Below, one piece after another: positions 12,103 through 39,776 of a stretch of DNA of 64,000 nt. Source of the stretch: an uncultured Marinoscillum sp. GTDB lineage: Bacteria > Bacteroidota > Bacteroidia > Cytophagales > MED-G16. The notes under the pieces were generated by a model, which did not search any database, had not been told where the DNA came from, and was given only the letters and a program-made list of their open reading frames with translations. Each line of letters starts with the position of its first letter. Within the stretch, counting starts at the first letter, position 1. The position numbers were made by a program, and so were the translations under genes. The stretch is from the NCBI GenBank assembly GCA_902633975.1, contig CACPHX010000003.1, forward strand, positions 15,373-79,372, written 5' to 3'.

Positions 12103-15007
12103 ATTTAAGTGGGTCTTCTCTAACAATAATTTTATCTGTAAATTTTTTGCCGTTTTTAAGTCGTATCTCAACATTATAGATACCCTCATCTGCTTCAAAA
12201 TTATCATATAGTTTGTCATCAAAAACTTTTACACCACCGGCATACATTCCGTAATCATCAAGAAAGCTTTTTCTTACTTTGTTTAGATCAGTAAAAGATT
12301 TTTGATCAATAAAATTATATTTGTCAAGTCCTTTCTTATCAATAACAACACTTAAAAATTCTTTTTTTATTTTAATAAGATTATCTCTATACCTGAAAAA
12401 CTCATCTTTTGTTCTCTCTAACTCAAAAGGCCAAACAAATCTGTTAATACCTGCCTTTATATTTAAACTTTTTCTAAAAATTGGTTCTTTAGAATTATCA
12501 TCTACATTATTTTTTGAGATTATTAATTCACCTTCTGTATTACTAGTACTGAAATAATTAATTAAAGTCCCGTATGGAGGATTTTCACCTCTAAACTCGA
12601 AAAAAGGTTGTTTTCTTCCTGTATTAATTTTTACCCATTTGGTAGAAATTCTTGTTGCTAGTAGGTTATCTTCTTTTTCATTTAAAAATCGCAAGGGTGA
12701 AATATCATCAAGAATCCAGATACTTCTTCCATGAGTACCAGCAACTAGATCTCCATCTCTTGGATGAATAACCAAGTCATGTATTGCAACAGTTGGAAGA
12801 TTGCTACCAAGTTTTTCCCAGGAAGTTCCTCTATCATTACTGAAATAGACAGATTTTTCAGTACCAACAAAAAGTAAATTTTCATCTACATAATCTTCTT
12901 TTATGACATAAACTGAATAATCCTGGGGTAGATTGGATGATATATTACTCCATGTTTTTCCATAATCTTCTGTAATAAAAACATAAGGTTTATTATCATC
13001 AAATCTATGATTATCAAATGATACATATGCTCTTCCTTTTGAATGTTTAGACGCTTCAACCCTACTAACCCATATCTTCTCAGGAACACCATCAATATTA
13101 TTTTTTACATTTTCCCATGAATCGCCATTGTTTCTTGTTACCTGAACATTTCCGTCATCTGTTCCAACCCATATTAATGTTGTATCTATAGGAGTATCAC
13201 TAATTGTAATAATTGTAAAGTGATTTTCACCTCCAGTGTTACTATTAGTCAGGCCACCTCCATTCGAAGTATTTCTAAGTTTTTTATCATTTGTTGTCAG
13301 GTCTGGACTTATTATTTTCCAGTTGTCTCCTCTGTCAAAAGACTGGAATAGATGATTTGATCCAAATAAGACTTTTTTTGAGTTATGGGATGAAATTATA
13401 AATGGACTACTCCAATTAAACCTAAACTGAGGAGGTAAAAGAGGTCTGTCAGGTCTCTCTCTAAAAAACCAGTGTTCACCAGGGTCAATTGTATATCTAT
13501 TTCTTGACTCATCATAATTATAATCAACAAAATTTTTAAAATTTGAAATAGTTTCAGGAGTAGGTGTAATAAATGAATATTCTCTTGTCTCAATATTTTG
13601 CCTTGCAACAAATCCAACGTGGTTAACTGTGTATACAGTTTTCCAATCCTCAGGATCTATTTGGGTATGAAAACCATCTCCCTCTGCAATCCACGTACTA
13701 TGCATATTTAAAATTCCTCTATACTCTCTGCTGTTACTTGGCGTTACCCAAAGACCATTATCTTGCAATCCTCCACCAACATAATATGGATCTCGCATAT
13801 CAACACCAATTGCATAGTACTGACCAATAGCCATATTGTTGTGTGATAACCAACTTTGACCACCATCAATAGATAGTCTAGAACCCTGATCAGTTGCTAA
13901 ATACATAATTTTATTATCATAAGGTGCAATCCACATGTCGTGGTCATCACCTCCATCTGTTCTCCATCTTCTCGGATAAAAACTTTTACCTCCATCATTA
14001 GATATCATAAACCCTCTAGAAACAACGTAAATATTATCTGGATCTATTGGATCAATCTCTATCTGTCCATGATAGAAAGGTCTTACTGCATGTTTTAATA
14101 AAAAACTCCAAGATTCACCTTCATCATATGAAATATAAACTCCTGTTCCTGGTTCATTTTCAGGAATATTTTCATCTGCTTCATATGCCATTACCATTAT
14201 TTTAGGATTATTTAGATGGATTGAGATATCTATCATCCCGCTTTTCCCTCTGGCAAGACCGGTAGTAATTTTCTTCCAGTTTTTTCCCCCGTCTGTACTT
14301 TTGAATAGTCCACCTTGTTCTCCACCACTCACAAAACTAGCAGGTTGTCTCAATCTGTGGTAAAATCCAGCAAACATAATATCTGGATTTTCTGGATGAA
14401 ATATTATCTCTGTGCAACCTGTTTTCCCATCATTAGGCAGCCCACCCTCAACACGATTCCATGATGAACCTCCATCTTTAGTCATAAAAAGTCCTCTATC
14501 ACCAGAATATCCCCACAAATGTCCTACTGCAGCAGCGTAAACAATATCTGGATTTTTAGGATGTATTTCAATTTCAGCAATTTGATGAGTGGATTCTAAG
14601 CCCATATTTTTAAAAGTCTTGCCACCGTCTACAGATTTGTAGATTCCATCACCCCACGCACTTGAGTTACGGTTTGCTGACTCACCTGTTCCTACCCATA
14701 TAGTATTTAAATTATTTTGATCAAATTTTACAGAACCTATTGATCCAGCACCATAATTATCAAAAATACTCTCCCATGTTATACCTCCATTGTCAGATTT
14801 AAATACTCCTCCTGATGCTGAGGCAATCAAAACTTTTCTGTAATCTTTATTGCTAGCATCAATTGCAGCAATTCTTCCCATCATATTGGCTGGTCCAATA
14901 TTTCTCCATTTTAGGTCGTGTGTAGAAGATTTTTTCTGAGCATTTAAACTTATATTAAATGATATAATAAAGAAAAAAAATAAAATTTTTAATTTTTTAA
15001 GATTCAT
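12095..15007 (-). CDS. Exported sortilin/VPS10-like BNR (Asp-box) repeat beta-propeller protein
   Basis: At least 10 Asp-box repeats of the S-x-D-x-G-x-(T/S)-W type (SDNGGITW, TKDGGSSW, STDGGKNW, SIDGGQSW, TEDYGKTW and others). Start set at MNLKKLKILFFFF (15007). Confidence 0.75.
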   Translation of the reverse strand: MNLKKLKILFFFFIISFNISLNAQKKSSTHDLKWRNIGPANMMGRIAAIDASNKDYRKVLIASASGGVFKSDNGGITWESIFDNYGAGSIGSVKFDQNNLNTIWVGTGESANRNSSAWGDGIYKSVDGGKTFKNMGLESTHQIAEIEIHPKNPDIVYAAAVGHLWGYSGDRGLFMTKDGGSSWNRVEGGLPNDGKTGCTEIIFHPENPDIMFAGFYHRLRQPASFVSGGEQGGLFKSTDGGKNWKKITTGLARGKSGMIDISIHLNNPKIMVMAYEADENIPENEPGTGVYISYDEGESWSFLLKHAVRPFYHGQIEIDPIDPDNIYVVSRGFMISNDGGKSFYPRRWRTDGGDDHDMWIAPYDNKIMYLATDQGSRLSIDGGQSWLSHNNMAIGQYYAIGVDMRDPYYVGGGLQDNGLWVTPSNSREYRGILNMHSTWIAEGDGFHTQIDPEDWKTVYTVNHVGFVARQNIETREYSFITPTPETISNFKNFVDYNYDESRNRYTIDPGEHWFFRERPDRPLLPPQFRFNWSSPFIISSHNSKKVLFGSNHLFQSFDRGDNWKIISPDLTTNDKKLRNTSNGGGLTNSNTGGENHFTIITISDTPIDTTLIWVGTDDGNVQVTRNNGDSWENVKNNIDGVPEKIWVSRVEASKHSKGRAYVSFDNHRFDDNKPYVFITEDYGKTWSNISSNLPQDYSVYVIKEDYVDENLLFVGTEKSVYFSNDRGTSWEKLGSNLPTVAIHDLVIHPRDGDLVAGTHGRSIWILDDISPLRFLNEKEDNLLATRISTKWVKINTGRKQPFFEFRGENPPYGTLINYFSTSNTEGELIISKNNVDDNSKEPIFRKSLNIKAGINRFVWPFELERTKDEFFRYRDNLIKIKKEFLSVVIDKKGLDKYNFIDQKSFTDLNKVRKSFLDDYGMYAGGVKVFDDKLYDNFEADEGIYNVEIRLKNGKKFTDKIIVREDPLKSN

Positions 15008-16652
15008 ATACCCATTTTCCTCCAACCATAGTTCTTTCTACTGGAATATCAATAATTCTCATAGGATCAGTTTCTCTAGGATCTTGACCTAAAATGGTCA
15101 AATCAGCCAATTTACCTATCTCAATAGAACCTTTAATATTTTCTTCATATGAGGCATATGCTCCATTGATTGTTGCAACTTTAATGGCTTCCTCGACACT
15201 TATTTTTTGGCTTGGTCCCCAGACTTCACCTGTGTAATCAGTTCTTGTTACACTTGATTGTATTGCCATCATAGGTTCGAATGGTCCTGGAGGATAATCT
15301 GAGGTTTGAGTTACAGGTATCCCAGCATCAAGAAAACTTCTAACAGCAAACATATTTTCTAGTCTTTCTTTACCATATTCTTTCATTTTTTCTCCATGAA
15401 AATAAACATATGTAGAAAAAGGATTAGGTATTACTCCAAGAGTTTTTATTCTTTGGACCAAAGACTCATTTATTATTGTGCAATGTTCAATTCTAAATCT
15501 AGGGTCTTTTCTATATTTTTCTTTTTGGAGTCTTTCAAAAACTCTTAGGGTTATATCAATACCCACATCTCCGTTTGCATGAACTCCGATTTGCCAGTCA
15601 TTTAAATGCGCTTTGATAGCTTCCTCGTAAATTTCATCTTCATTATTAATAATAATTCCATAATAATCCGGTCTACCAATATATGGTTTTGATAATCTTG
15701 CAGTTCTTTCAGATATTGATCCATCACATACTAACTTGACTGCGCCAACACGAACCCACTCGTCACCATAACCTGTTTTCTTACCAGATCCATTTACTTC
15801 ATCAAAAGCATAACCCCGAATCATACAATAAACTCTTGTCTTGAGTTCTCCACTTTCATAGGCATCCTCAAATGCTTGAAGGGATTTTACACCAGTTCCT
15901 GCGTCAGTCACAGAGGTAATTCCGGATTTTGATAACATTTCTGATATTAATTTGACTCCTGCCTGGTAATCTGATCTAGTAAATTGATTTGGAATAAATT
16001 TTTCTACAAGATAAGTAGCTGTTTCAAGAAGTCTCCCATTTAAATTTCCTGTCTCAAGATCCCTTTCAATATTACCTCCTTTTGGGTCAGGTGTTTTTTC
16101 ATCTATTCCTGCTATTTTAAGAGCTAATGAATTTACATATGCAGTATGACCTCCTCTATGAGTTATCATCACTGGGTGATCTGGAGATACTTCGTCAAGG
16201 TCGATATTATTTATATATCTTTTCTCTTTTGTCTTAGTATCATCGTATTTAAACCCACTAATCCATTCCCCTTTAGGTGTCTTCTTAGATCTCTCAAAGA
16301 TTGCATTTTTAATTTCTTCTATTGACCTCAGATCACAATCAACATTTCTAAGGTGTGATCTTCCCGCACCAGCAGGGTGAGAGTGAGCGTCAATAAATCC
16401 TGGTGTTATAATTTTTCCACCAACATTAATTTTTTTAGTGTATGCTGAACTTAGATTCATTATGTCTTCGTTACTTCCGACACCAATAATTTTATCACCA
16501 CTAATTGCTATAGCTTCAGCTGATGGTTGATTAGGGTTTACGGTTATAATATCTGCATTATATAATATTAAATCTGCTTTTTCTAAATAACATGACATTA
16601 ATGCTAATGGAGGCAATGATGCTACAAAATCTCTTCTACTAATATTTTTCAT
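14997..16652 (-). CDS. Tat/Sec-exported amidohydrolase family protein (YtcJ-like metal-dependent hydrolase)
   Basis: N-terminal SRRDFVASLPPLALMS. Metal-binding GFIDAHSHP. Length ~550 aa, typical of the Amidohydro_3 family. Confidence 0.75.
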   Translation of the reverse strand: MKNISRRDFVASLPPLALMSCYLEKADLILYNADIITVNPNQPSAEAIAISGDKIIGVGSNEDIMNLSSAYTKKINVGGKIITPGFIDAHSHPAGAGRSHLRNVDCDLRSIEEIKNAIFERSKKTPKGEWISGFKYDDTKTKEKRYINNIDLDEVSPDHPVMITHRGGHTAYVNSLALKIAGIDEKTPDPKGGNIERDLETGNLNGRLLETATYLVEKFIPNQFTRSDYQAGVKLISEMLSKSGITSVTDAGTGVKSLQAFEDAYESGELKTRVYCMIRGYAFDEVNGSGKKTGYGDEWVRVGAVKLVCDGSISERTARLSKPYIGRPDYYGIIINNEDEIYEEAIKAHLNDWQIGVHANGDVGIDITLRVFERLQKEKYRKDPRFRIEHCTIINESLVQRIKTLGVIPNPFSTYVYFHGEKMKEYGKERLENMFAVRSFLDAGIPVTQTSDYPPGPFEPMMAIQSSVTRTDYTGEVWGPSQKISVEEAIKVATINGAYASYEENIKGSIEIGKLADLTILGQDPRETDPMRIIDIPVERTMVGGKWVYES

Positions 16653-26923: not shown

Positions 26924-27169
26924 ATGAAAAATTTTTTAAGAACAAGAGGTTATTTTAATTTTCAGAATCTAACATTTTTGGGTCTAATCATTTTATCATA
27001 TCAAAATTATGAGACAAGAAATAAATTAAATGATATAGTTTCAAGAATAGAGTATAATACATTCGAACTAGAAGAGATTAAAAAAGAAACTAGAGAAGCA
27101 ACCAAATATGCTAAATCAGCAAATACGATGGCTTTTTCTATTTTTACATCAATTGAAGAAAAAAAGTGA
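26924..27169 (+). CDS. Hypothetical small membrane-anchored coiled-coil protein
   Basis: One TM segment (LTFLGLIILSY) followed by a charged helical tail. The stop overlaps the next ORF (GTGA). Confidence 0.4.
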   Translation: MKNFLRTRGYFNFQNLTFLGLIILSYQNYETRNKLNDIVSRIEYNTFELEEIKKETREATKYAKSANTMAFSIFTSIEEKK

Positions 27170-27180
27170 ATTTTTTGTAT

Positions 27181-27513
27181 ATGAGATTTATAACTTTGAT
27201 CTTTTTTCTATTTATATGTAATAATTCTTTTAGTCAAAAAATTTACTCAACAAAATATAAGTCCCAAGCTGACATTAATGTTTTTGTCACGCAATTTAAA
27301 TCACAAGCCGATTTGTTAGTTTATAAGGTTGAATATATTTCTCAAGCAAAACAAAATGTTGGTTTATGGTTTTTTGTTGATAATGAGTCTAGATCAGATA
27401 AGAAAATTTTCTTTTCAGATTATAAATCACAAGCTGACCTAAAGGTTTTTTTTGTGGATTACAAGTCTCAAGCAGGATGGAGAAATAATTCTAAAAAATA
27501 TCTTCTTTACTAA
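27181..27513 (+). CDS. Exported repeat protein with five (Y/F)(K/I)SQA(D/K/G) repeats (possibly DUF6150-like)
   Basis: Signal peptide MRFITLIFFLFICNNSFSQ. Repeats YKSQADINVFV, FKSQADLLVYKV, YISQAKQNV, YKSQADLKVFFV and YKSQAGW. ATG at 27181 preferred over GTG at 27166. Confidence 0.6.
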   Translation: MRFITLIFFLFICNNSFSQKIYSTKYKSQADINVFVTQFKSQADLLVYKVEYISQAKQNVGLWFFVDNESRSDKKIFFSDYKSQADLKVFFVDYKSQAGWRNNSKKYLLY

Positions 27514-28223
27514 TCTTTTATTTCGTACTCTGCATATATTTTAGCTTGATTTAGATTATTACTTATATCACTAATGAGCCTAGAATAGTTATTCACATAA
27601 ATTTCAGCTCTAGTTAACAATCCAAAGAATTCATCTGAAAAATAATACTCTTCATTAAAATTATAATTTGTTAGTTGTTTAACACCATAGATTTCTCCCT
27701 CTAAATTATTTTGATCAATATTAATGCGAAATTTTGAATATACTTGATTAAAAAAGTCAACTGCAAAATTATCTATTAAAACAGAGATTGAAGTATTTCT
27801 GTCATTTTGGTGATTATAAATTTTTAAAAGCAAAAGTTTAAGTTCAGGTTTTTCTATTAATTCAAAACTACCGGTTGAGATGAGTTGATTAAAAATACCT
27901 TCTTGAGCAAAATACGAATACATAATATTAATCTCTGTCAATCTATTTATAACCTCTTTCTCTGATAAATTTTTATTTCTAGATATTATATCTCCTTGTA
28001 ATTCATTAATAATTTTAGATGATCTATTCATCTCTGATTTTATATAATCAAGCTGTTTCTGATCTTCATCAATAGTATTTATTAGATCAGTAATGAGTTT
28101 ATTTTTATTTGAATTTTTCTCTGCTAAGTCTCTTCTACCTTCAATATAAAATGATAATATTATGCTGAATAAGATAACCAAAGATTCTACTGAGTATTTT
28201 TTAATATTATCAATAATACTCAT
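27510..28223 (-). CDS. N-terminally anchored coiled-coil protein, DUF6090-like, paralog B
   Basis: One N-terminal TM segment. Shared block GIFNQLISTGSFELI. Colinear with the adjacent gene over its full length. Confidence 0.6.
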   Translation of the reverse strand: MSIIDNIKKYSVESLVILFSIILSFYIEGRRDLAEKNSNKNKLITDLINTIDEDQKQLDYIKSEMNRSSKIINELQGDIISRNKNLSEKEVINRLTEINIMYSYFAQEGIFNQLISTGSFELIEKPELKLLLLKIYNHQNDRNTSISVLIDNFAVDFFNQVYSKFRINIDQNNLEGEIYGVKQLTNYNFNEEYYFSDEFFGLLTRAEIYVNNYSRLISDISNNLNQAKIYAEYEIKD

Positions 28224-28225
28224 AA

Positions 28226-28945
28226 TTATTTGTTGGATATTTCATATTCAGCGTAAATTCTAGCTTGTTTGTAATTTTCTTCAATATCATTTAAAAGTCT
28301 AATGTACATATTTCCCCATTGTTTAGCTCTTGAGAGTAATCCATAAAATTCATTTGAATAATAAAATTCTTTATCAAATTGAAAATTTCTTAGAACTTGT
28401 TTGCCATAGTATTCGCCATCAAGGCTATTGTATTCTGTATCTATTCTAAACTTACTGTAAATATTATTTTGATATTCAATATTAAAAAAGTCAATTGATG
28501 TTGATATAGCTATATTCCTTTCATTTTGATGATTAAAAAGACGTAATAATATAGATTTTAGCTCTTGACTATCTATTAACTCAAAACTTCCGGTGGAAAT
28601 TAGTTGATTAAATATTCCTTTTTGTGGAAAAAAAGACGTTCCAACATTTGCTGTGATTGCTTTTGAAATTAATTCACTCTTTTTTGGATTGTAATCGTCG
28701 GAATTAATGTCTGATTGAATATCATTAATATTTTGAACAGCATTAGATACTGATTCATTAATATTTTGAATTTGTTCTAAATCTTCATCAATTGAATTTA
28801 TTAAATCTAGGATGAGCTTATCTTTATTATCATTTTTTTCAGCTAAATCTCTCTGACCTTCAACATAAAATGAAAGAATCACACTAAATAAAATAACCAT
28901 TCCCTCAATACCATAGGATTGAACTTTACTAAAATCGATTCTCAT
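28226..28945 (-). CDS. N-terminally anchored coiled-coil protein, DUF6090-like, paralog A
   Basis: Same architecture and the same conserved blocks as 27510-28223 (VILFS.ILSFY.EG.RDLAEKN, GIFNQLISTGSFELI, ARIYAEYEI). Confidence 0.6.
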   Translation of the reverse strand: MRIDFSKVQSYGIEGMVILFSVILSFYVEGQRDLAEKNDNKDKLILDLINSIDEDLEQIQNINESVSNAVQNINDIQSDINSDDYNPKKSELISKAITANVGTSFFPQKGIFNQLISTGSFELIDSQELKSILLRLFNHQNERNIAISTSIDFFNIEYQNNIYSKFRIDTEYNSLDGEYYGKQVLRNFQFDKEFYYSNEFYGLLSRAKQWGNMYIRLLNDIEENYKQARIYAEYEISNK

Positions 28946-28949
28946 AATA

Positions 28950-31184
28950 TTATATACTTAGTGATAAAGATATATAATAATTTCTTGGTAAACCTGGGTA
29001 GTAGTATCTTGGATCTCTACCTCCAAAACCAATCGCATTTATTACAATACCTGATGCATAACTTTTATCAAACAAGTTATTAACTCCAGTTGATATATGT
29101 ATGTCTAACTTATTTATTGAAAAAAGTTTTGATAATTTAAAGTTAAAAAGTGAATATGCATCAGTAAATAATTCGTTTGAATCATTCATTGGTAATTTCC
29201 CTACATTTTGAAATGAAACTTGAGCAATATAATTTTTAAAATCTATTTTAATTTTTGAATTAATCGTGTGGGTAGGTACACCGGTTAATTTATTTTTAGA
29301 GTAGTCATTGCCTCTGTTGTTAAAATCTTTAAATACATACCAGTATTTAGAAAAATTATTTGATGATATAACGGAAAATTTTTCACTTCTATATAATGAA
29401 AAGTTCATTGTTGCTTCTAATCCTGGGTGAGATGTTTTCCCAGCATTAACCCCTGTAAATGTATCGAAACCTGTTCTCTGTGCTACCAAAAGATTCTTGA
29501 TATCAACATAATAAATTCCAAAATTATATGAAAGGATGTTATTTCTTGAAGATCCTATGAGTCCTAACTCATAATTCCAACCAGTTTCTGGTTTTATATT
29601 TGGATCTACAATTCCATTTTCATCGAGGGTTTCATCAATATTAGGAGAAGAAAACCCGTGACTAATATTTGCAAATATTGAGTTATTATTCAAATTAATA
29701 TTATATGATATTCTCGGGGATATAATTGTTTTCGTACTGTAGCTTAGTGAGTTAGAATTAATATTATCAATCCAATCGTAATTAATTTTATTAGATCCAA
29801 TACCAAAAGTCAAAAATGAATTTTTAAAGGTTTTATCAATCTGCATAAAAAAATTATAATTCTTTCTGTCTTGAGTTTGCTGAGATATTATTCTCTCGTT
29901 TGCAGTTCTATATTCATCCCATGTGCTGAATAAATAATTTTCGTTGGAATATTCAAAACCGTAACTAAGGTCAAAAGGAGTTATCGATAATTGACCAATA
30001 TGTCTAAATCCAAATGAATCACTATCCTCAATCAAATAATTAAACGGTCTTTTCTCATCATTGTCAAATGTCTTATAGAAAAATGTAGTAATCGATTTGT
30101 ATTTATTCCTTTTTATATTAAATGTTATTCCAGATAATGATCTGTTATAATCTTCTCCCCCTTGAACATTTCCCCAAGTAAATGCGGCACTTGATGGATT
30201 ATTTTGAAAATTTTCTAAACTTAATGAAGAGGGTATAAATGCATCTGCTGTATTAAAAAAATTTATAAACTCTAGGCTGTAATAATCATTTATTTCATAA
30301 TTAATACTTGTAAAAAATCTATTATTATTGTAAGAATTGTTGTCTCTATATCCATCACTTTTAATCTTTTCAAAGTTAAAGAGTAAGTTTAATCTGTTAA
30401 TTTCTCTTGAAACAGATATACTGTTTTGATAAGTATTGAATGACTTAAATATGGATTTTATCTTAACAGTTTTATCAAAACTTTTAGAGGTTTTAAGAAT
30501 AATATTACCACCAAGACCAGAACCATAGATACTTGAGTTGGGTCCTTTATTTATTTCTATTTGATCTAATATATCTATTCCAAAATCTTCAATTGTTGTT
30601 TCACCTACACCATTAGATAGGGGAATATTATTAAGGTATGATTTTATCTTGTTTGTTGAATATTGAGATCTCGAACCCATACCTCTTATAGTAATTCTAT
30701 TGGTATTGTATCCTGCAGAATGTGTATATAAACCTGAAGTTTGATTAAGTGTATTAATTAAAAACTCTCCCTCATTCTTTCTGAATTCAATATCATCAAT
30801 TATCGAAGTTGATGAATTATTATCTTTGAATCTTTTTGGATAAAAATTGGAGTTGATAATTATGTCGTCAAGAATAAAACCTTTATGAATAAGTTCAATC
30901 GTTTTATTTCTAAAATTATCCAACTCAATTTCTTTAGAATAATATCTAAAATCATTTATGCTAATGTTTATTGGTAATTTGCTAGGATTGATTGTTACAA
31001 TTCCTTTTTCGTTTGTATAAATAATATCATTACCTATATTGATCTTTATATTTTCTAGAGCAGATCCATCAATTTTATCAATAACAGTAAGTGATATAGT
31101 ATTTTTTGATAGAACACTAAAAGGAATGAAAAATAAAATAAATATTATAGAAATATTTTTATTTAGTAGAACATGTAAATACAT
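28950..31184 (-). CDS. TonB-dependent receptor with N-terminal CarboxypepD_reg-like domain
   Basis: Plug motifs ITIRGMGSRS and IEINKGPNSSIYGSGLGGNIIL. Long beta-barrel. No SusD-like partner adjacent. Confidence 0.85.
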   Translation of the reverse strand: MYLHVLLNKNISIIFILFFIPFSVLSKNTISLTVIDKIDGSALENIKINIGNDIIYTNEKGIVTINPSKLPINISINDFRYYSKEIELDNFRNKTIELIHKGFILDDIIINSNFYPKRFKDNNSSTSIIDDIEFRKNEGEFLINTLNQTSGLYTHSAGYNTNRITIRGMGSRSQYSTNKIKSYLNNIPLSNGVGETTIEDFGIDILDQIEINKGPNSSIYGSGLGGNIILKTSKSFDKTVKIKSIFKSFNTYQNSISVSREINRLNLLFNFEKIKSDGYRDNNSYNNNRFFTSINYEINDYYSLEFINFFNTADAFIPSSLSLENFQNNPSSAAFTWGNVQGGEDYNRSLSGITFNIKRNKYKSITTFFYKTFDNDEKRPFNYLIEDSDSFGFRHIGQLSITPFDLSYGFEYSNENYLFSTWDEYRTANERIISQQTQDRKNYNFFMQIDKTFKNSFLTFGIGSNKINYDWIDNINSNSLSYSTKTIISPRISYNINLNNNSIFANISHGFSSPNIDETLDENGIVDPNIKPETGWNYELGLIGSSRNNILSYNFGIYYVDIKNLLVAQRTGFDTFTGVNAGKTSHPGLEATMNFSLYRSEKFSVISSNNFSKYWYVFKDFNNRGNDYSKNKLTGVPTHTINSKIKIDFKNYIAQVSFQNVGKLPMNDSNELFTDAYSLFNFKLSKLFSINKLDIHISTGVNNLFDKSYASGIVINAIGFGGRDPRYYYPGLPRNYYISLSLSI

Positions 31185-31402
31185 AATAAGATAATTGAAA
31201 TGACACCTATTATATACTTAAATGATTTAAAAATGTTTAGTAGAATTTTATCTTCTGTCATATTTGCAAATGCTCCTAGAGAAAAGTAAATCATCCATAA
31301 AATAAAAAAAGCTATTAATATCTTAGTTATTGTTATTTCCATTATTAAATCTAATAAATTTAAATTTTTAATTTCACTACTGAAAATTAGATTTAAATTC
31401 AT
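31163..31402 (-). CDS. Hypothetical small two-TM membrane protein
   Basis: 79 aa with two hydrophobic segments. Overlaps the TBDR start by 22 nt. Coding status uncertain. Confidence 0.35.
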   Translation of the reverse strand: MNLNLIFSSEIKNLNLLDLIMEITITKILIAFFILWMIYFSLGAFANMTEDKILLNIFKSFKYIIGVISIILLCIYMFY

Positions 31403-31460: not shown

Positions 31461-31958
31461 CTATTTTGAGACTGTGAGTGTATTGTTTTCTATTACAGCA
31501 GTGTAAGAATCTAAATCTCCTGTTCCTCCTGGAGCGCTTAATACAGAACCTTGATTATTAAATAATGCTCCATGACAACCGCATCTAAAATTATTGTTTG
31601 AGTATCCCCAACTAGTTCTACATCCTGCATGGGGACACACACTCGTAAAAGCTCTTATTATGTTTTGTCCAACATTAACAATTAACATAGCTCCCTGATC
31701 AAAACGTTTCCAGCCTCCTTGAATTTTTAGTGATGAAAAAGATGGGTGATTTAAATCTATGGTATAAACATTACCATCAACTGTAAATCCTACACTAGTT
31801 TCAGTATTTTCTTCAGTTTTTTCGTCATCAGATATTTCGTCAATAGTTTCATCTGCTTCACTACAACTTGAGAAAAAAGATGTTCCTAATGCTGTAAAAA
31901 GTGCTGAAGAACCAGCAGTTTTCAGAAATTCTCTTCTTTTATTTTTAGTAATTTTCAC
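31461..31958 (-). CDS. Tat-exported lipoprotein with a bc1/b6f-type Rieske [2Fe-2S] domain
   Basis: KRREFLKTAG twin-arginine motif, lipobox FFSSC, and an acidic linker. Cluster boxes CPHAGC and CGCHG are separated by 12 residues; together they give CxH-x15-CxxH plus the disulfide cysteines. Confidence 0.85.
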   Translation of the reverse strand: MKITKNKRREFLKTAGSSALFTALGTSFFSSCSEADETIDEISDDEKTEENTETSVGFTVDGNVYTIDLNHPSFSSLKIQGGWKRFDQGAMLIVNVGQNIIRAFTSVCPHAGCRTSWGYSNNNFRCGCHGALFNNQGSVLSAPGGTGDLDSYTAVIENNTLTVSK

Positions 31959-31990: not shown

Positions 31991-34198
31991 TTATAAATTA
32001 ATTAGATACTGAAATTTTATAAAAACTTGAGAGTTATCTATATTATAGTATTTTTCTTTCATAAAATTTTGATTTCCTCCAACATAAAAGATTGTAAAAG
32101 GATTGGGGATCCATTCAAATAAGGGTTGAAAGAAAAGAGAATTATTAAAAGTATTAATTTCTGATGTTAATCTTACACCTATTGTTTTAGAGAATTGATA
32201 TTTAGTATCAATTCTATAAATGTAGCCATCAAAATAATATTTATCATTTTTTAAATTTTTGAGTCTGGATTTATTAAAGATATTTGATATTGAGAAATTA
32301 TCAGTAATTTGAAAAGTTAAATTAAAATACAAATCAAGCTCTCTTCCAACCTCAGGATTATCAGAATTAAATGCTATATCTTTTCCAAATCTTATATTTG
32401 AAATAAGATTCAAAAATTCAATGGGTTTAGTACTTATACCTAATCTATTGGTTCCATAATTTTTATAATCGACTCCTAAGTAGTTTGTAATGAAATCATA
32501 ATCATAATAATATGAGAATTCAGTATTTCCTTTGAATCTAGTATTTATACTTCCATCAAGGGACATAATATCAAGATTATCTGTAAAATCATATAAAATA
32601 TCCTTCTTGATTGTTAATGAGGCAGTTTTTATAAAACCATTATCCCAAAACTTATTGTGTGATTGAAGTAAAGTAATCCATTTTCTATCATTCTTTACAG
32701 CGAATCCTACATCTGTCCTATAATTTGGATCAATATGTTTGTAGCCAACATAAGTAGTCCATCTTTCTGTTTTACGAGTAATACCTAATGAAATTCCAGT
32801 CCCATTGAATTTTTCGCCATCGAGACTTATAGTATTTTCTCCAAAGAATTCATTTGAATCAATCCAGTTTTTACTTGGTTCAAGATTTAAGTTTTTGAGA
32901 ATATCAAAGGCAAACCTAATATTTTTAGATATCTGAATTAATCCATCAAGTCCAAATAAATTACCATATCCGCCACCACTATAGATCCTACTCGATGATA
33001 AAAATCCTATTTTAGAACCCTTTCCAAGTAGATGTTGGTATCTAAATATATTGATAATGCTTTTTCCACCTTCACCAAGGTATGATTTGTCATTTCCTGC
33101 AATAAGGTATGGAGAATTTCTATCAAGTGATGATAATAATAGAAATCTTGAACTTTTCCCTTGATTTAATATTTTTAAGGCATACAGTGGATCATTAATA
33201 GATCTTGAATAGAAGGGCTGTAAATCATTAGAGTTAAGATTTAATATGTCTACACCGTTATTAAAAAATGGTCTTTTTTCTGGATAGCTTAGTGAGTATG
33301 AAGAGTTTGCATCAACTCTTGTGACATCAGCTTCAACCTGAGAAAAATCAGGGTTTAATGTTAATTCAAGTGATAGGGTTTTTGATAATTCAGCATTTAC
33401 ACCTAAGCCAATACTTGGTTTAATTTTTTGGTAATTAATTGTATTTGAATTATCATTTCTACTTCCCGTAATATTTGAAGATACATATGGTAATAGATCA
33501 AATTTTTTCTTAACTCTAAATTTATCAAAGACAATTAAATCATTTAATTGACAGGTTGTACACGAATTATTTCTATCTTCTTTGCTTGTTGAAATTGCAT
33601 AATCAAGATATCTTCTGTTGAAACTAAATTTCCATTTTTGGGTTTTATTATTTGAAAATGAAATTGATGAAAAAGGAATTTTAAGTTCAACAAAATATTC
33701 ATTATCTCCGATAACACCTATTGACTCAAATTCAAGGTCATATGCCAAATCATATCTTCCTTCTTCGGTTAAGCTATTGAGAATTCTTACATCGAGTTGA
33801 GATCCCAAAGGGTTACAACCAATAAATATGTTATTCCTGCCATCACCGTAAGTATCTATACTGATACCAATCAGATCATTTCCTAGTGATCCTAAATCAT
33901 CTCTTTTTCTAACTGCAGCCCTAACAGGTTCATTTGTTTTAGCACGAAATGCAACATAAATATAGTTTTCAGAATATTGAATATATCCTTCAGTCTCAAC
34001 TATTGGTTTAGTATTATATCCAGGTTCAGTCTCATAATCTAAACTTAATTTTTTACTATCTTTCCATTCTTTTTCATCTAAAAACCCATCAAGTTTAATT
34101 TTTTCATCATTGATAAAAGGAACATCAATAACCCTTTGAGATATGCATTTATTAATGTTAATTAGAAGAAAAAAAATAATGCAGATTATATTTTTCAT
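31991..34198 (-). CDS. Outer-membrane protein with an N-terminal CBM9/DOMON-like domain and a large beta-barrel (DUF5916-like)
   Basis: Signal peptide. N-terminal KLDGFLDEKEW...YIYVAFRA is CBM9-like. The ~500 aa C-terminal region has a beta-strand pattern and ends FKFQYLINL. Confidence 0.55.
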   Translation of the reverse strand: MKNIICIIFFLLININKCISQRVIDVPFINDEKIKLDGFLDEKEWKDSKKLSLDYETEPGYNTKPIVETEGYIQYSENYIYVAFRAKTNEPVRAAVRKRDDLGSLGNDLIGISIDTYGDGRNNIFIGCNPLGSQLDVRILNSLTEEGRYDLAYDLEFESIGVIGDNEYFVELKIPFSSISFSNNKTQKWKFSFNRRYLDYAISTSKEDRNNSCTTCQLNDLIVFDKFRVKKKFDLLPYVSSNITGSRNDNSNTINYQKIKPSIGLGVNAELSKTLSLELTLNPDFSQVEADVTRVDANSSYSLSYPEKRPFFNNGVDILNLNSNDLQPFYSRSINDPLYALKILNQGKSSRFLLLSSLDRNSPYLIAGNDKSYLGEGGKSIINIFRYQHLLGKGSKIGFLSSSRIYSGGGYGNLFGLDGLIQISKNIRFAFDILKNLNLEPSKNWIDSNEFFGENTISLDGEKFNGTGISLGITRKTERWTTYVGYKHIDPNYRTDVGFAVKNDRKWITLLQSHNKFWDNGFIKTASLTIKKDILYDFTDNLDIMSLDGSINTRFKGNTEFSYYYDYDFITNYLGVDYKNYGTNRLGISTKPIEFLNLISNIRFGKDIAFNSDNPEVGRELDLYFNLTFQITDNFSISNIFNKSRLKNLKNDKYYFDGYIYRIDTKYQFSKTIGVRLTSEINTFNNSLFFQPLFEWIPNPFTIFYVGGNQNFMKEKYYNIDNSQVFIKFQYLINL

Positions 34199-34223: not shown

Positions 34224-35849
34224 TCAATCCATAAAAGGATACCTATAATCTTTAGGTGTATTATAAACTTCTTTTATAGTTCTAGGAGAAACCCATCTAA
34301 GTAGATTAAGATACGATCCAGCCTTGTCGTTTGTCCCTGATGCTCTTCCTCCACCAAACGGTTGTTGTCCAACAACTGCTCCCGTTGGCTTATCATTTAT
34401 ATAAAAATTGCCTGCGGCATATTCAAGTAATTTATTTGCAAGATCAATTGCAGTTTGTTCCTTTGCAAATACAGCACCCGTTAAAGCATATGGAGATGTT
34501 TTATCTACAAGCATAAGTGTTTCCTTAAACTTATTATCATCATACACATATATACAGGTCACAGGTCCAAAAACTTCCTCTTCCATTAATTTATTATTCG
34601 GATTTTTAGTAACGAAAACAGTTGGCTCAATAAAATAACCTTTACTGTCATCATAATTTCCACCTATCAATAGTTCTAGATCTGAATCTTTTTTCCCATC
34701 ATCTATATATGAAATTATTTTTTTAAATGCTTTCTCCTCTATAACTGCATTCATAAAATTTCCAAAATCCTCTGGATCTCCGATTTTAATGTCTTTAATA
34801 TCTTGAATTAAATTTTTTTTAACATCATTCCATATAGATTTTGCTATGTAAATTCTTGACGGGGCACTGCACTTCTGCCCTTGAAACTCAAAACAACCTC
34901 TAATTATTGCGGTTGAAACCTCCTTTGTATTAGCAGATTTGTGAGCTATTATAAAATCTTTTCCTCCTGTTTCTCCAACAATTCTTGGATATGATTTATA
35001 TCTGTTAATATTATTCCCAATTTCTTTCCATAAATTTTTAAAGACAGCCGTACTTCCAGTAAAATGTAATCCAGCAAAATCTTTATGTTTAAAAATCACA
35101 TCTCCAGCAATAGGTCCGTCAACATATATAATATTAATTACACCATTAGGTAATCCTGCCTCTTTAAAAATTTCCATAATTATATTAGCCGAATATATTT
35201 GAGGGTATGCAGGTTTCCATACGATAGTGTTACCCATAAGAGCAGGACTTGCGCAGAGGTTTCCTGCGATTGATGTAAAATTAAATGGACTAATAGCAAA
35301 TACAAACCCTTCAAGAGGTCTGTAATCAAGTCTATTCCACATCCCGTTTGAAGATTCAGGTTGCTTTTTATAAATTTCTTCCATATAAGAAGCATTGAAA
35401 TTTAGAAAGTCAATAAACTCACATGCAGCATCTATTTCAGCCTGAAAAACATTTTTGGATTGACCAAGCATAGTCGATCCGTTGATTTTAGATCTGTATG
35501 GTCCAGCAATAAGTTCAGCTGCTTTAAGAAAAATAGATGAGCGAGATTGCCATGACATAGATGCCCACTCTTTTTTTGCTTCAAGAGCTGCATTAATTGC
35601 CATTTTAACATGTGATTTATCTCCTTCATTAAATGTTCCAAGTTTAAGTTTATGATTGTGGGGTGCCGTAATTTCAATTTTTTGGTTTGTTTTTATTTCT
35701 TTTCCACCAATAATCATTGGTATATCGATCTCTTTTTTTTTCATTTCTTGGATCGTATCTAAAAGTTCTCTCTTTTCTATTGAACCTTCTCTAAACTCTT
35801 TAATTGGCTCATTAATTGGAATTGGTATTTCAAAAAAAGCATTGCTCAT
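34224..35849 (-). CDS. pruA: L-glutamate gamma-semialdehyde (1-pyrroline-5-carboxylate) dehydrogenase
   Basis: 541 aa ALDH. VGETGGKDF, catalytic box FEFQGQKCSA and C-terminal QPFGGGRASGTNDKAG are typical of long bacterial P5CDH. Confidence 0.85.
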   Translation of the reverse strand: MSNAFFEIPIPINEPIKEFREGSIEKRELLDTIQEMKKKEIDIPMIIGGKEIKTNQKIEITAPHNHKLKLGTFNEGDKSHVKMAINAALEAKKEWASMSWQSRSSIFLKAAELIAGPYRSKINGSTMLGQSKNVFQAEIDAACEFIDFLNFNASYMEEIYKKQPESSNGMWNRLDYRPLEGFVFAISPFNFTSIAGNLCASPALMGNTIVWKPAYPQIYSANIIMEIFKEAGLPNGVINIIYVDGPIAGDVIFKHKDFAGLHFTGSTAVFKNLWKEIGNNINRYKSYPRIVGETGGKDFIIAHKSANTKEVSTAIIRGCFEFQGQKCSAPSRIYIAKSIWNDVKKNLIQDIKDIKIGDPEDFGNFMNAVIEEKAFKKIISYIDDGKKDSDLELLIGGNYDDSKGYFIEPTVFVTKNPNNKLMEEEVFGPVTCIYVYDDNKFKETLMLVDKTSPYALTGAVFAKEQTAIDLANKLLEYAAGNFYINDKPTGAVVGQQPFGGGRASGTNDKAGSYLNLLRWVSPRTIKEVYNTPKDYRYPFMD

Positions 35850-35866
35850 GTTTTATTATATTTAAT

Positions 35867-36247
35867 TTATCTCCAGGATTTTAGTTCTAATTTATTAATT
35901 GCTAACTCTCTATTATTAAACATTATATCGTACGCCTCAAGATCTTCTTTAAGTTGTAAATCTTTATCTAAATAATCAAATATTTGATCAATTATATCTA
36001 GTGCTTCCTCTCTCAAAGAATAAAAAATAAATTGATCTTGATTTCTAAAATTTAACAGTCCAGAATTTTTTAGATAATTAACATGTCTAGAGGTTTTTGT
36101 TTGAGTAAAATCTAAAATTATTTCAAGATCTGTAATTGTTGCTTCTTTTCTGTTTGATAAAATATTTAGAATTCTAATTCTTGAAACATCAGATAATGAT
36201 TTAAAAACCGTTTTTCCGTATTCAATATTAAATTTTTTTAACCTCAT
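35867..36247 (-). CDS. ArsR/SmtB family winged-helix transcriptional regulator (no metal-binding Cys motif)
   Basis: SDVSRIRILNIL and TKTSRHVNYLKNSGLL HTH region. The sequence contains no cysteine, so the CxC metal site is absent. Confidence 0.75.
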   Translation of the reverse strand: MRLKKFNIEYGKTVFKSLSDVSRIRILNILSNRKEATITDLEIILDFTQTKTSRHVNYLKNSGLLNFRNQDQFIFYSLREEALDIIDQIFDYLDKDLQLKEDLEAYDIMFNNRELAINKLELKSWR

Positions 36248-37614: not shown

Positions 37615-39024
37615 ATGGCTGAAGAATACAAGAAAAGACGAGAAGAGATTCAAAGATTAGTTACAGAATTCGAATTAAAATTAAAAGATGAGTTAGATTT
37701 TTATTATGACTCAGAAACTTACGAAAAAATAATCAAGTGGTATATTGATAACCATAAATTTAAATTTGGATTAAAGGCTGTAAATTTTGCATTATCCCAA
37801 CACAAATTTTCTTCTGATCTTTTAATACAAAAAGCAAATATTCAAATTGCTCTACAAAACTTTACAGAATCTTTAAATTCTTTAGAAAAAGCTCATTCAC
37901 TTAATCCTAAGGATGAAAATATTTTTATTTTGATGGGACAAGTTAAAATTATTTTAGGAGATGCTTATGGATCTATAAAAATTTTAAAAAAAGCTCTAAA
38001 TATTTCTGAAAATAAGGACGAAATCTATTATCAAATTGGTTTAGCATTTCAATCACAAAAAAAATTTAATAAAGCTTCTAAATATTACAAAAAAACTATT
38101 GAATCTAATTTGACTCATGAGAATGCCTTATATGATCTTGCATATTGCTTAGAGACATTGGGCGAACTTGAAAACAGTATATCATATTATAAAAAGTTTA
38201 TTGATGAAGATCCTTATTCAGAATTTGCTTGGTTTAACATAGGAAATATTTATTTTAAATTAAATCAATATGATAAAGCAGTTGATGCTTTTGAATTAGC
38301 TATTGCTATTGATGAGGAATATTCTATTGCTTACATAAAACTTTCTCAAGCATTAATAAAATTAAAAAAATATGAGAAAGCTAAAAAATATTTGGATAAC
38401 TGTATGAAAATAGATGGACCATCACCTGAAATTTATTCTGATTTAGGTAATGTCTTGTATTTATTACAAGATTATTCTACTTCCATTAAATATTATCAAA
38501 AATCAATAAAGATAGATCAATCCTTCAAGGAATCTTATTTTGGATTAGGAAGAAGCTTATCGAAGCTTGATAAATGGTTTGAAGCTATTCATTTTTTTAA
38601 AAAAGCTTACAAGCTTGATAGCAATAATTTTGAATATATCAAGTCACTTGCTTATGCTGAATTTAAGGTAGGGAATTTAGTTTCAAGCATTGATTTATAT
38701 AATAAAGCTCTTAATCTTAAACCTGATGATTTAGAATTATCTCTTGAATTTTCTCAAATATTTTATGAAAGTGGTGAAATAGAAAAAGCTATTCAAATAA
38801 TTTATGATTGTATTGAAGAGCTTCCAGGTGAATCTTTACTTTATTACAGATTAGTCATTTATTTAATGGATGCTGGAAAATATAAAGAATCCATAAATGT
38901 TTTAGAAAACGCTCTTTCATTAAATTTTGAAAATCATGAGGTTTTATTTGATTTTTTACCGAATTATGAAAGTCATTCCTCACTAATTAGAATAATAAAT
39001 CAATTTAAAAAGAATAATTCGTGA
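37615..39024 (+). CDS. TPR repeat protein (about 10 TPR units, cytoplasmic)
   Basis: Repeated A..Y...L...P / Y..G..Y pattern throughout. No signal peptide. Confidence 0.7.
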   Translation: MAEEYKKRREEIQRLVTEFELKLKDELDFYYDSETYEKIIKWYIDNHKFKFGLKAVNFALSQHKFSSDLLIQKANIQIALQNFTESLNSLEKAHSLNPKDENIFILMGQVKIILGDAYGSIKILKKALNISENKDEIYYQIGLAFQSQKKFNKASKYYKKTIESNLTHENALYDLAYCLETLGELENSISYYKKFIDEDPYSEFAWFNIGNIYFKLNQYDKAVDAFELAIAIDEEYSIAYIKLSQALIKLKKYEKAKKYLDNCMKIDGPSPEIYSDLGNVLYLLQDYSTSIKYYQKSIKIDQSFKESYFGLGRSLSKLDKWFEAIHFFKKAYKLDSNNFEYIKSLAYAEFKVGNLVSSIDLYNKALNLKPDDLELSLEFSQIFYESGEIEKAIQIIYDCIEELPGESLLYYRLVIYLMDAGKYKESINVLENALSLNFENHEVLFDFLPNYESHSSLIRIINQFKKNNS

Positions 39025-39776
39025 ATTTCAATTTAAAAAATCTACCTAAAAGAAAGAGCAAACCAAGATCAGAGGGTATGACAATGGTCATTGATAAGGG
39101 ATCAAGTCTACAACAATGTAAAGATTTAATTGAGTCTAGTTCAGAGTATATTGATGTGATTAAATTTGGTTGGACTACTTCAAACTTTATAAATAATCTT
39201 AAAAAGAAAATTAAACTTTTTAAAGATTCAGATATAAACGTTTATTTTGGAGGAACTTTATTTGAAGCTTTTGCTGTAAGAAATCAATTAAATGAATACA
39301 TTTCGATTTTAAAAGAATACGATTTAAATCTTGCTGAAGTCTCTGATGGTTCGATATCAATACCACATAAAAAAAAATGCGAATACATTGAAAAGCTTTC
39401 AAAACATGTTACCGTATTTTCCGAAATAGGATCAAAAGATGAAAAAAAAATTATACCACCTTATAAATGGATAAAACAGATGAAAGCTGAATTGAACGCT
39501 GGTTCAAAGAAAGTAATAGGAGAGGCAAGAGAATCAGGAAGTGTTGGTCTTTTCAGATCATCCGGTGAAGTCAGACAGGGTTTAGTTGAGGAAATATTGA
39601 CAGAAATACCAAAAGAGAAGATAATATGGGAGGCACCTTTAAAAACTCAGCAGGTTTGGTTCGTAAAATTATTAGGCTCTAATGTTAATCTTGGAAATAT
39701 TTCTGGAAAGGAAGTTATTTCTTTGGAGACAATTAGGGTTGGCTTAAGAGGTGATACATTCAATGATTTCTTATAA
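39021..39776 (+). CDS. comA: (2R)-phospho-3-sulfolactate synthase (ComA family)
   Basis: KPRSEGMTMVIDKG, IDVIKFGWTTS, GGTLFE, EVSDGSI, GEARESG, WEAP, VNLGNI, LETIRVGLRGDTF. GTG start overlaps the upstream stop (GTGA). Confidence 0.8.
   Translation: MNFNLKNLPKRKSKPRSEGMTMVIDKGSSLQQCKDLIESSSEYIDVIKFGWTTSNFINNLKKKIKLFKDSDINVYFGGTLFEAFAVRNQLNEYISILKEYDLNLAEVSDGSISIPHKKKCEYIEKLSKHVTVFSEIGSKDEKKIIPPYKWIKQMKAELNAGSKKVIGEARESGSVGLFRSSGEVRQGLVEEILTEIPKEKIIWEAPLKTQQVWFVKLLGSNVNLGNISGKEVISLETIRVGLRGDTFNDFL

Follow-up and report, generated by a model that had tools for sequence, protein, structure and literature searches.

Which electron-transfer partner does a Rieske iron-sulfur protein serve when no bc-type complex is encoded beside it? 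The question is raised by a short gene at positions 31461–31958 of a 64-kb stretch of contig CACPHX010000003.1 from an uncultured Marinoscillum sp. (the whole 64,000-nucleotide stretch is called the window here), which encodes a Rieske lipoprotein among genes for outer-membrane proteins. Bacteroidota are known to use Alternative Complex III, a complex without a Rieske subunit. The answer that we favour, with a probability of roughly one half, is that the protein is a tethered one-electron carrier serving outer-membrane proteins, a PetC3-like lipoprotein that would operate without a bc complex. An earlier interpretation made from the letters of the window (the sequence-only reading) had assumed a source in the Flavobacteriia. 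That class was wrong, since the nearest genomic loci are metagenome-assembled or single-cell genomes labelled Marinoscillum sp. and Flammeovirgaceae (Cytophagia, Cytophagales). The G+C content of the window is about 30%.

The Rieske lipoprotein and its closest relatives

The gene and the parts of its product are listed below; Tat stands for twin-arginine translocation, pLDDT for the predicted local distance difference test, and lengths are in amino acids (aa).

31461–31958, minus strand: Rieske lipoprotein gene, GTG start, 165 aa, stop codon at 31461–31463 (from the list of open reading frames, Pfam PF00355 and homologues of the same length)
31866–31958, minus strand: Tat-type signal peptide, residues 1–31, with KRREFLK at 31920–31940 and a mildly hydrophobic h-region
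31863–31874, minus strand: lipobox F29-S-S-C32, C32 being the predicted lipidated N-terminus of the mature protein
31794–31862, minus strand: acidic disordered tether, residues 33–55, with 11 Asp or Glu in 23 residues and AlphaFold pLDDT below 50
31464–31793, minus strand: Rieske [2Fe-2S] domain, residues 56–165 (110 aa), from AlphaFold, Foldseek and sequence matches
31620–31637, minus strand: box I, C108-P-H110-A-G-C113, with ligands Cys108 and His110 and disulfide Cys113
31560–31583, minus strand: box II, C126-G-C128-H129-G-A131-L-F133, with ligands Cys126 and His129, disulfide Cys128, and Ala and Phe at the potential-tuning positions

The GTG start is credible because the predicted product agrees in length and N-terminus with metagenomic homologues at 96% and 89% identity. 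The segment K7-R-R-E-F-L-K13 fits the Tat consensus RRxFLK, as read from the sequence. The Rieske family PF00355 was matched with 41.3 bits against a cut-off of 20.3, and a scan of all open frames of at least 60 aa found the pattern CxH-(14–22)-CxxH only once in the window. In an alignment of 22 homologues, R8, F11, L12, C108, H110, C126 and H129 are invariant, as is F133, and C32 is at least 90% conserved. The lipobox Cys is kept in 47 of the 49 family loci described below and is absent only from two Rieske proteins linked to cytochrome b (L050 and L053). Both cysteines of the bc-type disulfide, C113 and C128, are present; the Pro-loop reads GPA in the family consensus and S-A-P143 in the window clade. 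The AlphaFold model built from the 22 homologues has pLDDT values above 90 over most of residues 56–165 and below 50 for the signal and the linker, so that the structure prediction called for earlier gives a confident Rieske domain. The Tat motif, the lipobox, the acidic linker, the domain of about 110 aa and the disulfide pair of the sequence-only reading are thereby all confirmed from sequence, and its position for the boxes, 31572–31637, was exact. A sub-threshold Pfam match of the acidic linker to Lsr2 was discarded as a low-complexity artefact.

None of the NCBIfam models for Rieske subunits reached its cut-off. The best matches, all far below threshold, were to the b6f PetC models (PetC, 39.9 against 250), to AioB (27.2 against 95.65) and to the proteobacterial bc1 Rieske model (25.4 against 97.4), with QcrA at 15.8 against 275. 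The top match in the PDB was PetC3 of Synechocystis (5CXM), both with the family profile (3.3e-17) and with the single sequence, which aligned over nearly the whole domain (7.2e-11); the Rieske protein of Chlorobaculum tepidum and b6f subunits came after it. In the structural comparison with Foldseek, Kuenenia kuste4569, PetC3 and the Chlorobaculum Rieske protein led the ranking, PetC3 at rank 2 having 32% identity and the highest target TM-score (0.73), and all 44 matches at E≤0.001 were Rieske proteins. The box spacing and the conserved Trp117 agree with PetC3 and b6f.

PetC3 is a Rieske lipoprotein held by an N-terminal Cys tether on the periplasmic side of the plasma membrane (PMC10172866, PMC12341915). 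Like the window protein, it carries a Tat-type signal and a lipidated Cys instead of a membrane helix, followed by a minimal Rieske domain of about 100 aa with the disulfide cysteines, the same box spacing, the Trp and the Ala/Phe pair, and its gene is not encoded with cytochrome b. The two proteins differ in that they belong to different phyla and share only about 32% identity, a likeness that comes from sequence and fold matches and not from a Rieske phylogeny, and in that the window protein has a long acidic tether resembling a Bacteroidota export signal and is linked to outer-membrane barrel genes. Judged by its sequence, the window protein is a PetC3-like Rieske lipoprotein, predicted to be periplasmic and to lie outside any bc-type complex. 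Although an orphan, as the sequence-only reading had it, the protein is not unprecedented, PetC3 being another lipid-anchored periplasmic Rieske protein outside b6f.

Two other groups of Rieske proteins are less similar. Those of b6f and of the green-sulfur menaquinol:cytochrome c oxidoreductase (8HN2, 2E74) share the fold, the disulfide, the Pro-loop and the box spacing; they retain a membrane helix at the N-terminus, dock on cytochrome b and have their genes beside the cytochrome b gene, whereas the window protein has a lipobox, lacks a nearby cytochrome b and falls below the PetC cut-offs. AioB shares Tat export, bc-type boxes and, in some members, the disulfide, and it gave weak sequence matches. 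However, no AioA molybdopterin subunit was found in the window or beside any family member examined.

The residues around the second box bear on the redox potential. The tuning motif reads CGCHG-A-L-F in the window protein versus CPCHG-A-E-F in PetC3. Across the family, 114 of 121 proteins have Phe at the Tyr position, and 11 of 121, including those of the window clade, have Ala at the Ser position. Successive Ser-to-Ala and Tyr-to-Phe changes in CxCHG-S-x-Y remove hydrogen bonds to the cluster and lead to +135 to +160 mV; PetC3 has a midpoint of +135 mV, versus about +300 mV in bc1 and b6f, and the Chlorobaculum Rieske protein, with Ala at the Ser position, has +160 mV (PMC10172866). Because Ala131 and Phe133 replace the Ser and Tyr hydrogen-bond donors as in PetC3, we predict a low midpoint, near +100 to +160 mV, which would suit a menaquinone-based chain. 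The description of the protein as bc1/b6f-type with a disulfide thus seems a fair label for the sequence, and its accompanying term "high-potential" is unsupported: the tuning pair is that of the +135 mV protein, and the cut-offs for PetC, bc1 and AioB were all missed.

We then consider possible partners. A Pfam scan of nearly all open reading frames of at least 110 aa, leaving out a few short frames that overlap longer genes, found no cytochrome b, cytochrome c1/f, molybdopterin subunit or oxygenase alpha subunit in the window; it returned peptidases, transporters, amino-acid and central metabolism, tetratricopeptide-repeat proteins and a single superoxide dismutase. The open frames of the window with 60 aa or more are all free of the CxxCH motif, and a tblastn search with a cytochrome b6 probe had no match there, which bears out the earlier claim that such partners are absent from it. 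Applied to the window together with 61 fetched loci (0.95 Mb), the probe matched only at L050 and L053, whose Rieske proteins have no lipobox and carry the classical CPHLGC and CPCHG boxes. Cytochrome b thus lies within 10 kb in none of the 47 lipoprotein-type loci, versus both of these non-lipoprotein controls. The search is thus able to detect bc-type operons, and the lipoprotein family does not belong to them.

Family, gene neighbourhood and the barrel protein

To describe gene contexts, we surveyed 49 loci, one genome per species, together with several metagenomic contigs, and labelled the genes by BLAST and Pfam. An outer-membrane barrel gene lies no more than two genes away in about three quarters of the 49 species loci. 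Three unrelated kinds of barrel recur beside the Rieske gene: a DUF5916-like barrel in the clade of the window, a DUF5777 barrel accompanied by YceI, and TonB-dependent receptors.

The neighbours of the gene in the window are as follows.

31991–34198, minus strand: barrel gene, 735 aa, upstream and co-directional, with a gap of 32 nucleotides (nt) to the Rieske gene
31163–31402, minus strand: small predicted two-helix membrane protein (homologues of 60–72 aa), overlapping the start of the receptor gene, no Pfam match
28950–31184, minus strand: TonB-dependent receptor, 744 aa, Pfam Plug, weak NCBIfam matches
27510–28945, minus strand: two tandem paralogues of 239 and 237 aa that follow the receptor, with apparently hydrophobic N-termini and no family match
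34224–35849, minus strand: aldehyde dehydrogenase resembling pyrroline-5-carboxylate dehydrogenase (Pfam), conserved throughout the clade
35867–36247, minus strand: ArsR-family regulator (Pfam), conserved throughout the clade

The window clade, defined by Rieske identity of at least 55%, comprises 12 independent loci including L061. Its gene order is ArsR, aldehyde dehydrogenase, an antisense fatty-acid hydroxylase, the DUF5916-like barrel, Rieske, an antisense MORN lipoprotein with a 137-aa gene, the small membrane protein and the TonB-dependent receptor, in which the hydroxylase, the MORN lipoprotein and the 137-aa gene are variably present. The barrel gene directly precedes the Rieske gene in all 12 loci, at a gap of 28–53 nt, and the pair is never split despite gene insertion and loss on both sides. 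The receptor lies 0.3–1.3 kb downstream of the Rieske gene, usually past the antisense genes, and the small membrane protein is kept before it in most of the clade loci that reach that far. A conserved linkage to the flanking outer-membrane genes, on which the sequence-only reading had relied, therefore stands for the upstream barrel; the link to the downstream receptor is weaker, with antisense genes intervening in most relatives.

Upstream, the antisense fatty-acid-hydroxylase gene splits ArsR and the aldehyde dehydrogenase from the barrel gene in most relatives, and these two conserved genes are probably inherited neighbours and not functional parts. The hydroxylase gene (421–445 aa; L002:5394–6659) matches the ornithine-lipid hydroxylase OlsE, though weakly; it stands divergent beside the barrel gene in L002–L004, L010–L012, L014, L015 and L061 and is absent from the window and from L008. 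At the other end, a protein of about 600 aa with a weak esterase match replaces the tandem paralogues in L002, L011, L012 and L061. Neither His/Cys motifs nor family matches were found in the small membrane protein and the tandem paralogues of the window. A scan for promoters and terminators, not built for Bacteroidota promoters, gave 74 promoter-like sites where 69 were expected, and the terminator-like sites all fell inside genes.

The product of the barrel gene has no Pfam match at E≤0.01. Its AlphaFold model (predicted template modelling score 0.77) consists of a signal peptide, a CBM9-like beta-sandwich at residues of about 23–225 and a large beta-barrel at about 232–735. In Foldseek, the barrel matched LptD, pilus ushers, TonB-dependent transporters and AlgE, and the sandwich matched the CBM9 structures 7NWN and 4JPQ. 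Homologues at 43–45% identity carry PF19313 (DUF5916) or PF06452 (CBM9_1); among 28 aligned, 12 have CBM9_1 and 3 have DUF5916. The model and these homologues suggest a divergent outer-membrane protein of the DUF5916/CBM9_1 type. A CxxC motif (SCTTCQ; C213 and C216) at the junction of sandwich and barrel is invariant, as is a long, poorly modelled loop at residues 282–337 (NPDFSQVEAD...YPEKRPFF...FYSRSIN), and both features are equally conserved in orthologues that lack a Rieske neighbour. These Rieske-less orthologues (L057–L060) adjoin Sortilin-Vps10/BNR proteins of about 1000 aa; the window homologue of the latter (12095–15025, minus strand, 976 aa, 32% identity) lies about 17 kb from the barrel gene. 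The proposal that the Rieske-linked barrels form one clade was dropped: neighbour-joining gives two such clades and a Rieske-less third, and midpoint rooting is too weak for more.

The second kind of barrel belongs to a three-gene module of Rieske, YceI and DUF5777, found in 11 species loci from Balneolia, Chitinophagales and Rhodothermaceae. The gaps within the module are −23 to +57 nt in 10 of the 11 loci; in L033 the Rieske frame had been missed by the gene caller and was placed by tblastn. The genes flanking the module vary between genomes. Because the gaps are tight and the flanks differ, which is the signature of a functional unit, we regard Rieske, YceI and DUF5777 as such a unit. The DUF5777 barrel was also considered as a relative of the DUF5916-like barrel; the profile comparison gave a probability of 1.6%, and the relationship was rejected. 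In L048 (7243–9488), a DUF5777 barrel, a 176-aa protein with a CxxCH heme motif (sequence partly masked) and a Rieske lipoprotein follow one another, and a putative c-type cytochrome appears to occupy the YceI slot. Most YceI-linked members (from L005, L016–L020, L022 and L041) and some others, L001 among them, have RK, or RI/RS, in place of the twin arginines (SRKDFLK, DRIEFLK) and keep FLK and the lipobox.

YceI lipocalins bind ubiquinone-8 and other isoprenoids, and YceI is linked or fused to cytochrome b561 in the detoxification of lipid peroxyls in the envelope (PMC9113575); in secreted redox proteins, YceI-like domains are also found together with cytochrome c domains (PMC8981238). The closest parallel to the module is the pair of BcnA, a YceI lipocalin, and LcoA, a cytochrome b561, in Burkholderia (PMC9113575), which shares with the sister lineages the coupling of YceI to a small envelope redox protein. 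The parallel would be functional only: the redox partner in the module is a Rieske lipoprotein and not a membrane cytochrome b561, the module includes a barrel, and the window is without YceI.

The third context, the TonB-dependent receptors, is that of a Flavobacteriaceae subgroup (L021, L023–L028, L030, L031, L035, L037–L039, L045, L056). Here, the Rieske lipoprotein has lost both disulfide cysteines (CPHQG[SA]...CxNH), and its gene stands between two TonB-dependent receptors, one of which, in L028, is divergent across a 113-nt intergenic region. The receptors of this context and of the window clade were compared as possible orthologues, and this was rejected (best cross-matches at E 1e-3 to 1e-7, over about 30% of the length). 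Equally, the 184-aa gene downstream of the Flavobacteriaceae Rieske genes is not the MORN lipoprotein, as the MORN profile matched only 11 window-clade loci.

At a larger scale, more than 5000 Rieske proteins were matched in a profile search, of which the top 120 are all 135–235 aa long; the few with a named source come from Bacteroidota, Balneolaceae, Rhodothermaceae, Cytophagales and Cyclobacteriaceae, and their annotation is limited to "Rieske (2Fe-2S) protein" or, at JGI, to b6f subunit. A library at 50% identity gave 49 clusters at E≤1e-30 and 1518 at E≤1e-10. Fused domains were considered for the longer members (up to 235 aa) and rejected, the extra length being N-terminal extensions or miscalled starts. 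Among distant relatives, four proteins (P0264, P0314, P0306, P0253) have from 2 to about 5 tandem Rieske domains, some of them degenerate, behind a twin-arginine signal, and three of the four have a clear lipobox Cys. From their sequences, these tandem proteins look like periplasmic electron relays, which would fit electron transfer better than catalysis.

Two further genes of the window stand apart from this system. A 115-aa open frame at 27166–27513 on the plus strand has several YKSQAD..V[FY] repeats, and a ComA-family (phosphosulfolactate synthase) gene at 39021–39776 on the plus strand lies beside a gene resembling undecaprenyl-phosphate translocases; the ComA-family gene may relate to the sulfonolipid synthesis of Bacteroidota.

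Proposed role, location and alternatives

In the mechanism that we propose, the [2Fe-2S] cluster would be bound in the cytoplasm and the folded protein exported by Tat. After cleavage and lipidation at Cys32, the protein would be tethered in the cell envelope on its 23-residue acidic flexible linker, where it would act as a one-electron carrier aimed at outer-membrane proteins. In the window clade, it would be co-transcribed with the DUF5916-like barrel, and in sister lineages the same role would be played within the three-gene module of Rieske, YceI lipocalin and DUF5777 barrel. We infer this role at the outer membrane because the three barrel associations are independent and one of them includes YceI, and the same holds for the potential and the location as well as for the substrate and the physical partner, whereas the identity of the domain, the signal features, the linkage of the genes and the lack of a cytochrome b nearby are shown directly. 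The arrangement suggests redox chemistry that involves quinols, at the outer membrane or close to it, such as redox homeostasis of the envelope or of lipids, or the reductive uptake of nutrients. A tethered periplasmic carrier for the neighbouring outer-membrane proteins had already been suggested by the sequence-only reading; the tether, the lack of a nearby bc partner and the link to the upstream barrel uphold this suggestion, and it has to be amended with regard to the high potential and to the receptor, whose link is weaker.

The N-terminus of the mature protein bears on its location. The lipoprotein export signal of Bacteroidota, in which a polar residue precedes acidic ones within positions +2 to +6 (SDDDD, SDDFE, K-(D/E)2), is sufficient for surface display (PMC5080379). 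The residues after C32, S-E-A-D-E, fit this definition, with three acidic residues at +2 to +6. The number of acidic residues in these positions is 2–4 in the members linked to DUF5916-like barrels or TonB-dependent receptors and 0–2 in the YceI-linked members, counts that are not phylogenetically independent across the family; among the other lipoprotein-like N-termini in the same loci, 11 of 44 have at least two. The acidic N-terminus is suggestive of targeting to the outer membrane or the cell surface.

Several observations weigh against a role in serving outer-membrane proteins. The link between Rieske protein and barrel is one of gene adjacency, and the adjacency of the DUF5916-like barrel is limited to one clade in which unrelated upstream genes are just as syntenic. 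Orthologues of the barrel without a Rieske neighbour, at similar divergence, occur in Flavobacteriaceae-type contigs (L057–L060), and therefore a Rieske partner is not a general requirement of the barrel. Nor does the barrel show an obvious site for a redox cofactor: its CxxC is invariant, but there is no invariant His or Met. Moreover, the three barrel types are non-homologous, so that a common mechanism cannot be taken for granted; the window yielded no YceI gene, and no electron donor was identified. PetC3, the nearest precedent, is itself without an established function (PMC10172866, PMC12341915).

These observations lend themselves to an alternative that we consider possible, though clearly less probable than a carrier for outer-membrane proteins: a stand-alone redox protein of the PetC3 type whose partners are encoded elsewhere, such as soluble cytochromes or inner-membrane quinol-oxidising enzymes, with the outer-membrane neighbours being a matter of synteny only. 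ArsR and the aldehyde dehydrogenase are as positionally conserved as the barrel, barrel orthologues occur without a Rieske neighbour, about 10 family loci (L001 and those of Cyclobacteriaceae, for example) have no adjacent barrel and no recurrent neighbour, and PetC3 also has no assigned partner. Synteny of this sort does not readily explain why insertions and losses on both sides never fall between the barrel and Rieske genes, why a separate, mobile Rieske-YceI-DUF5777 module spans several orders, or why roughly three in four species loci have a barrel gene no further than two genes from the Rieske gene.

The carrier for outer-membrane proteins was pictured above without regard to the side of the membrane on which it works. 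An unlikely version of the outer-membrane association places the lipoprotein on the surface, flipped there with the acidic stretch after Cys32 as its export signal and capping the upstream barrel as SusD caps SusC, with electrons delivered outside the cell, as in a reductive iron uptake that feeds the nearby TonB-dependent receptor. The C-S-E-A-D-E segment and the distribution of acidic residues described above speak for it, and the order of barrel and lipoprotein genes with a short gap resembles that of SusC/SusD pairs. However, the acidic stretch is possibly a mere flexible tether, and the sequence counts lack phylogenetic independence. To our knowledge, no folded iron-sulfur protein exported by Tat crosses the outer membrane by this route, and unfolding, if it were needed, would lose the cluster. 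There is also no apparent path for electrons across the outer membrane.

Finally, it is very unlikely that the protein belongs, as an alternative Rieske subunit, to a quinol-oxidising complex of the inner membrane with genes elsewhere in the genome, whether a bc-type complex or, as an accessory, Alternative Complex III: the bc-type boxes, the disulfide pair, the Pro-loop and PetC as the best sub-threshold NCBIfam match favour it, and the search for partners in the host covers the 64-kb window, but the lipobox, with a cleavage predicted from sequence, replaces the retained membrane helix of such subunits, the PetC and bc1 scores are far under their cut-offs, cytochrome b accompanies both non-lipoprotein loci and none of the lipoprotein-type loci, and Alternative Complex III of Bacteroidota has no Rieske subunit.

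Meaning for the family

Little is understood about Rieske proteins that belong neither to bc complexes nor to oxygenases; PetC3 has a structure and a potential and no assigned function. The PetC3 type itself is known, and what is new here is the occurrence in Bacteroidota of a PetC3-like Rieske lipoprotein, predicted to be periplasmic, whose gene partners encode outer-membrane proteins. It belongs to a comparable lipid-anchored Rieske family that is spread over several orders of Bacteroidota and allied lineages, bacteria known to use Alternative Complex III. If the linkage to outer-membrane genes is incidental, this is one more annotated "Rieske (2Fe-2S) protein".

A bolder proposal, which we regard as unlikely, is a cytochrome-free electron path that would span the envelope. 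The Rieske redox head would sit at the outer membrane, perhaps on the surface by virtue of its acidic, export-signal-like N-terminus, as the dedicated partner of a barrel, DUF5916-like in the window clade and DUF5777 in the sister lineages, where YceI would ferry menaquinol through the periplasm; electrons of the quinone pool would thereby reach the outer membrane or pass beyond it. If this were true, reductive iron acquisition and the quenching of lipid radicals in the outer membrane would be possible uses. For the family as a whole, the recurrent partners, namely the DUF5916-like barrel, YceI with DUF5777 and the TonB-dependent receptors, give testable hypotheses: that YceI shuttles quinols, that redox reactions take place at the outer membrane, or that the proteins serve marine bacteria in taking up iron.

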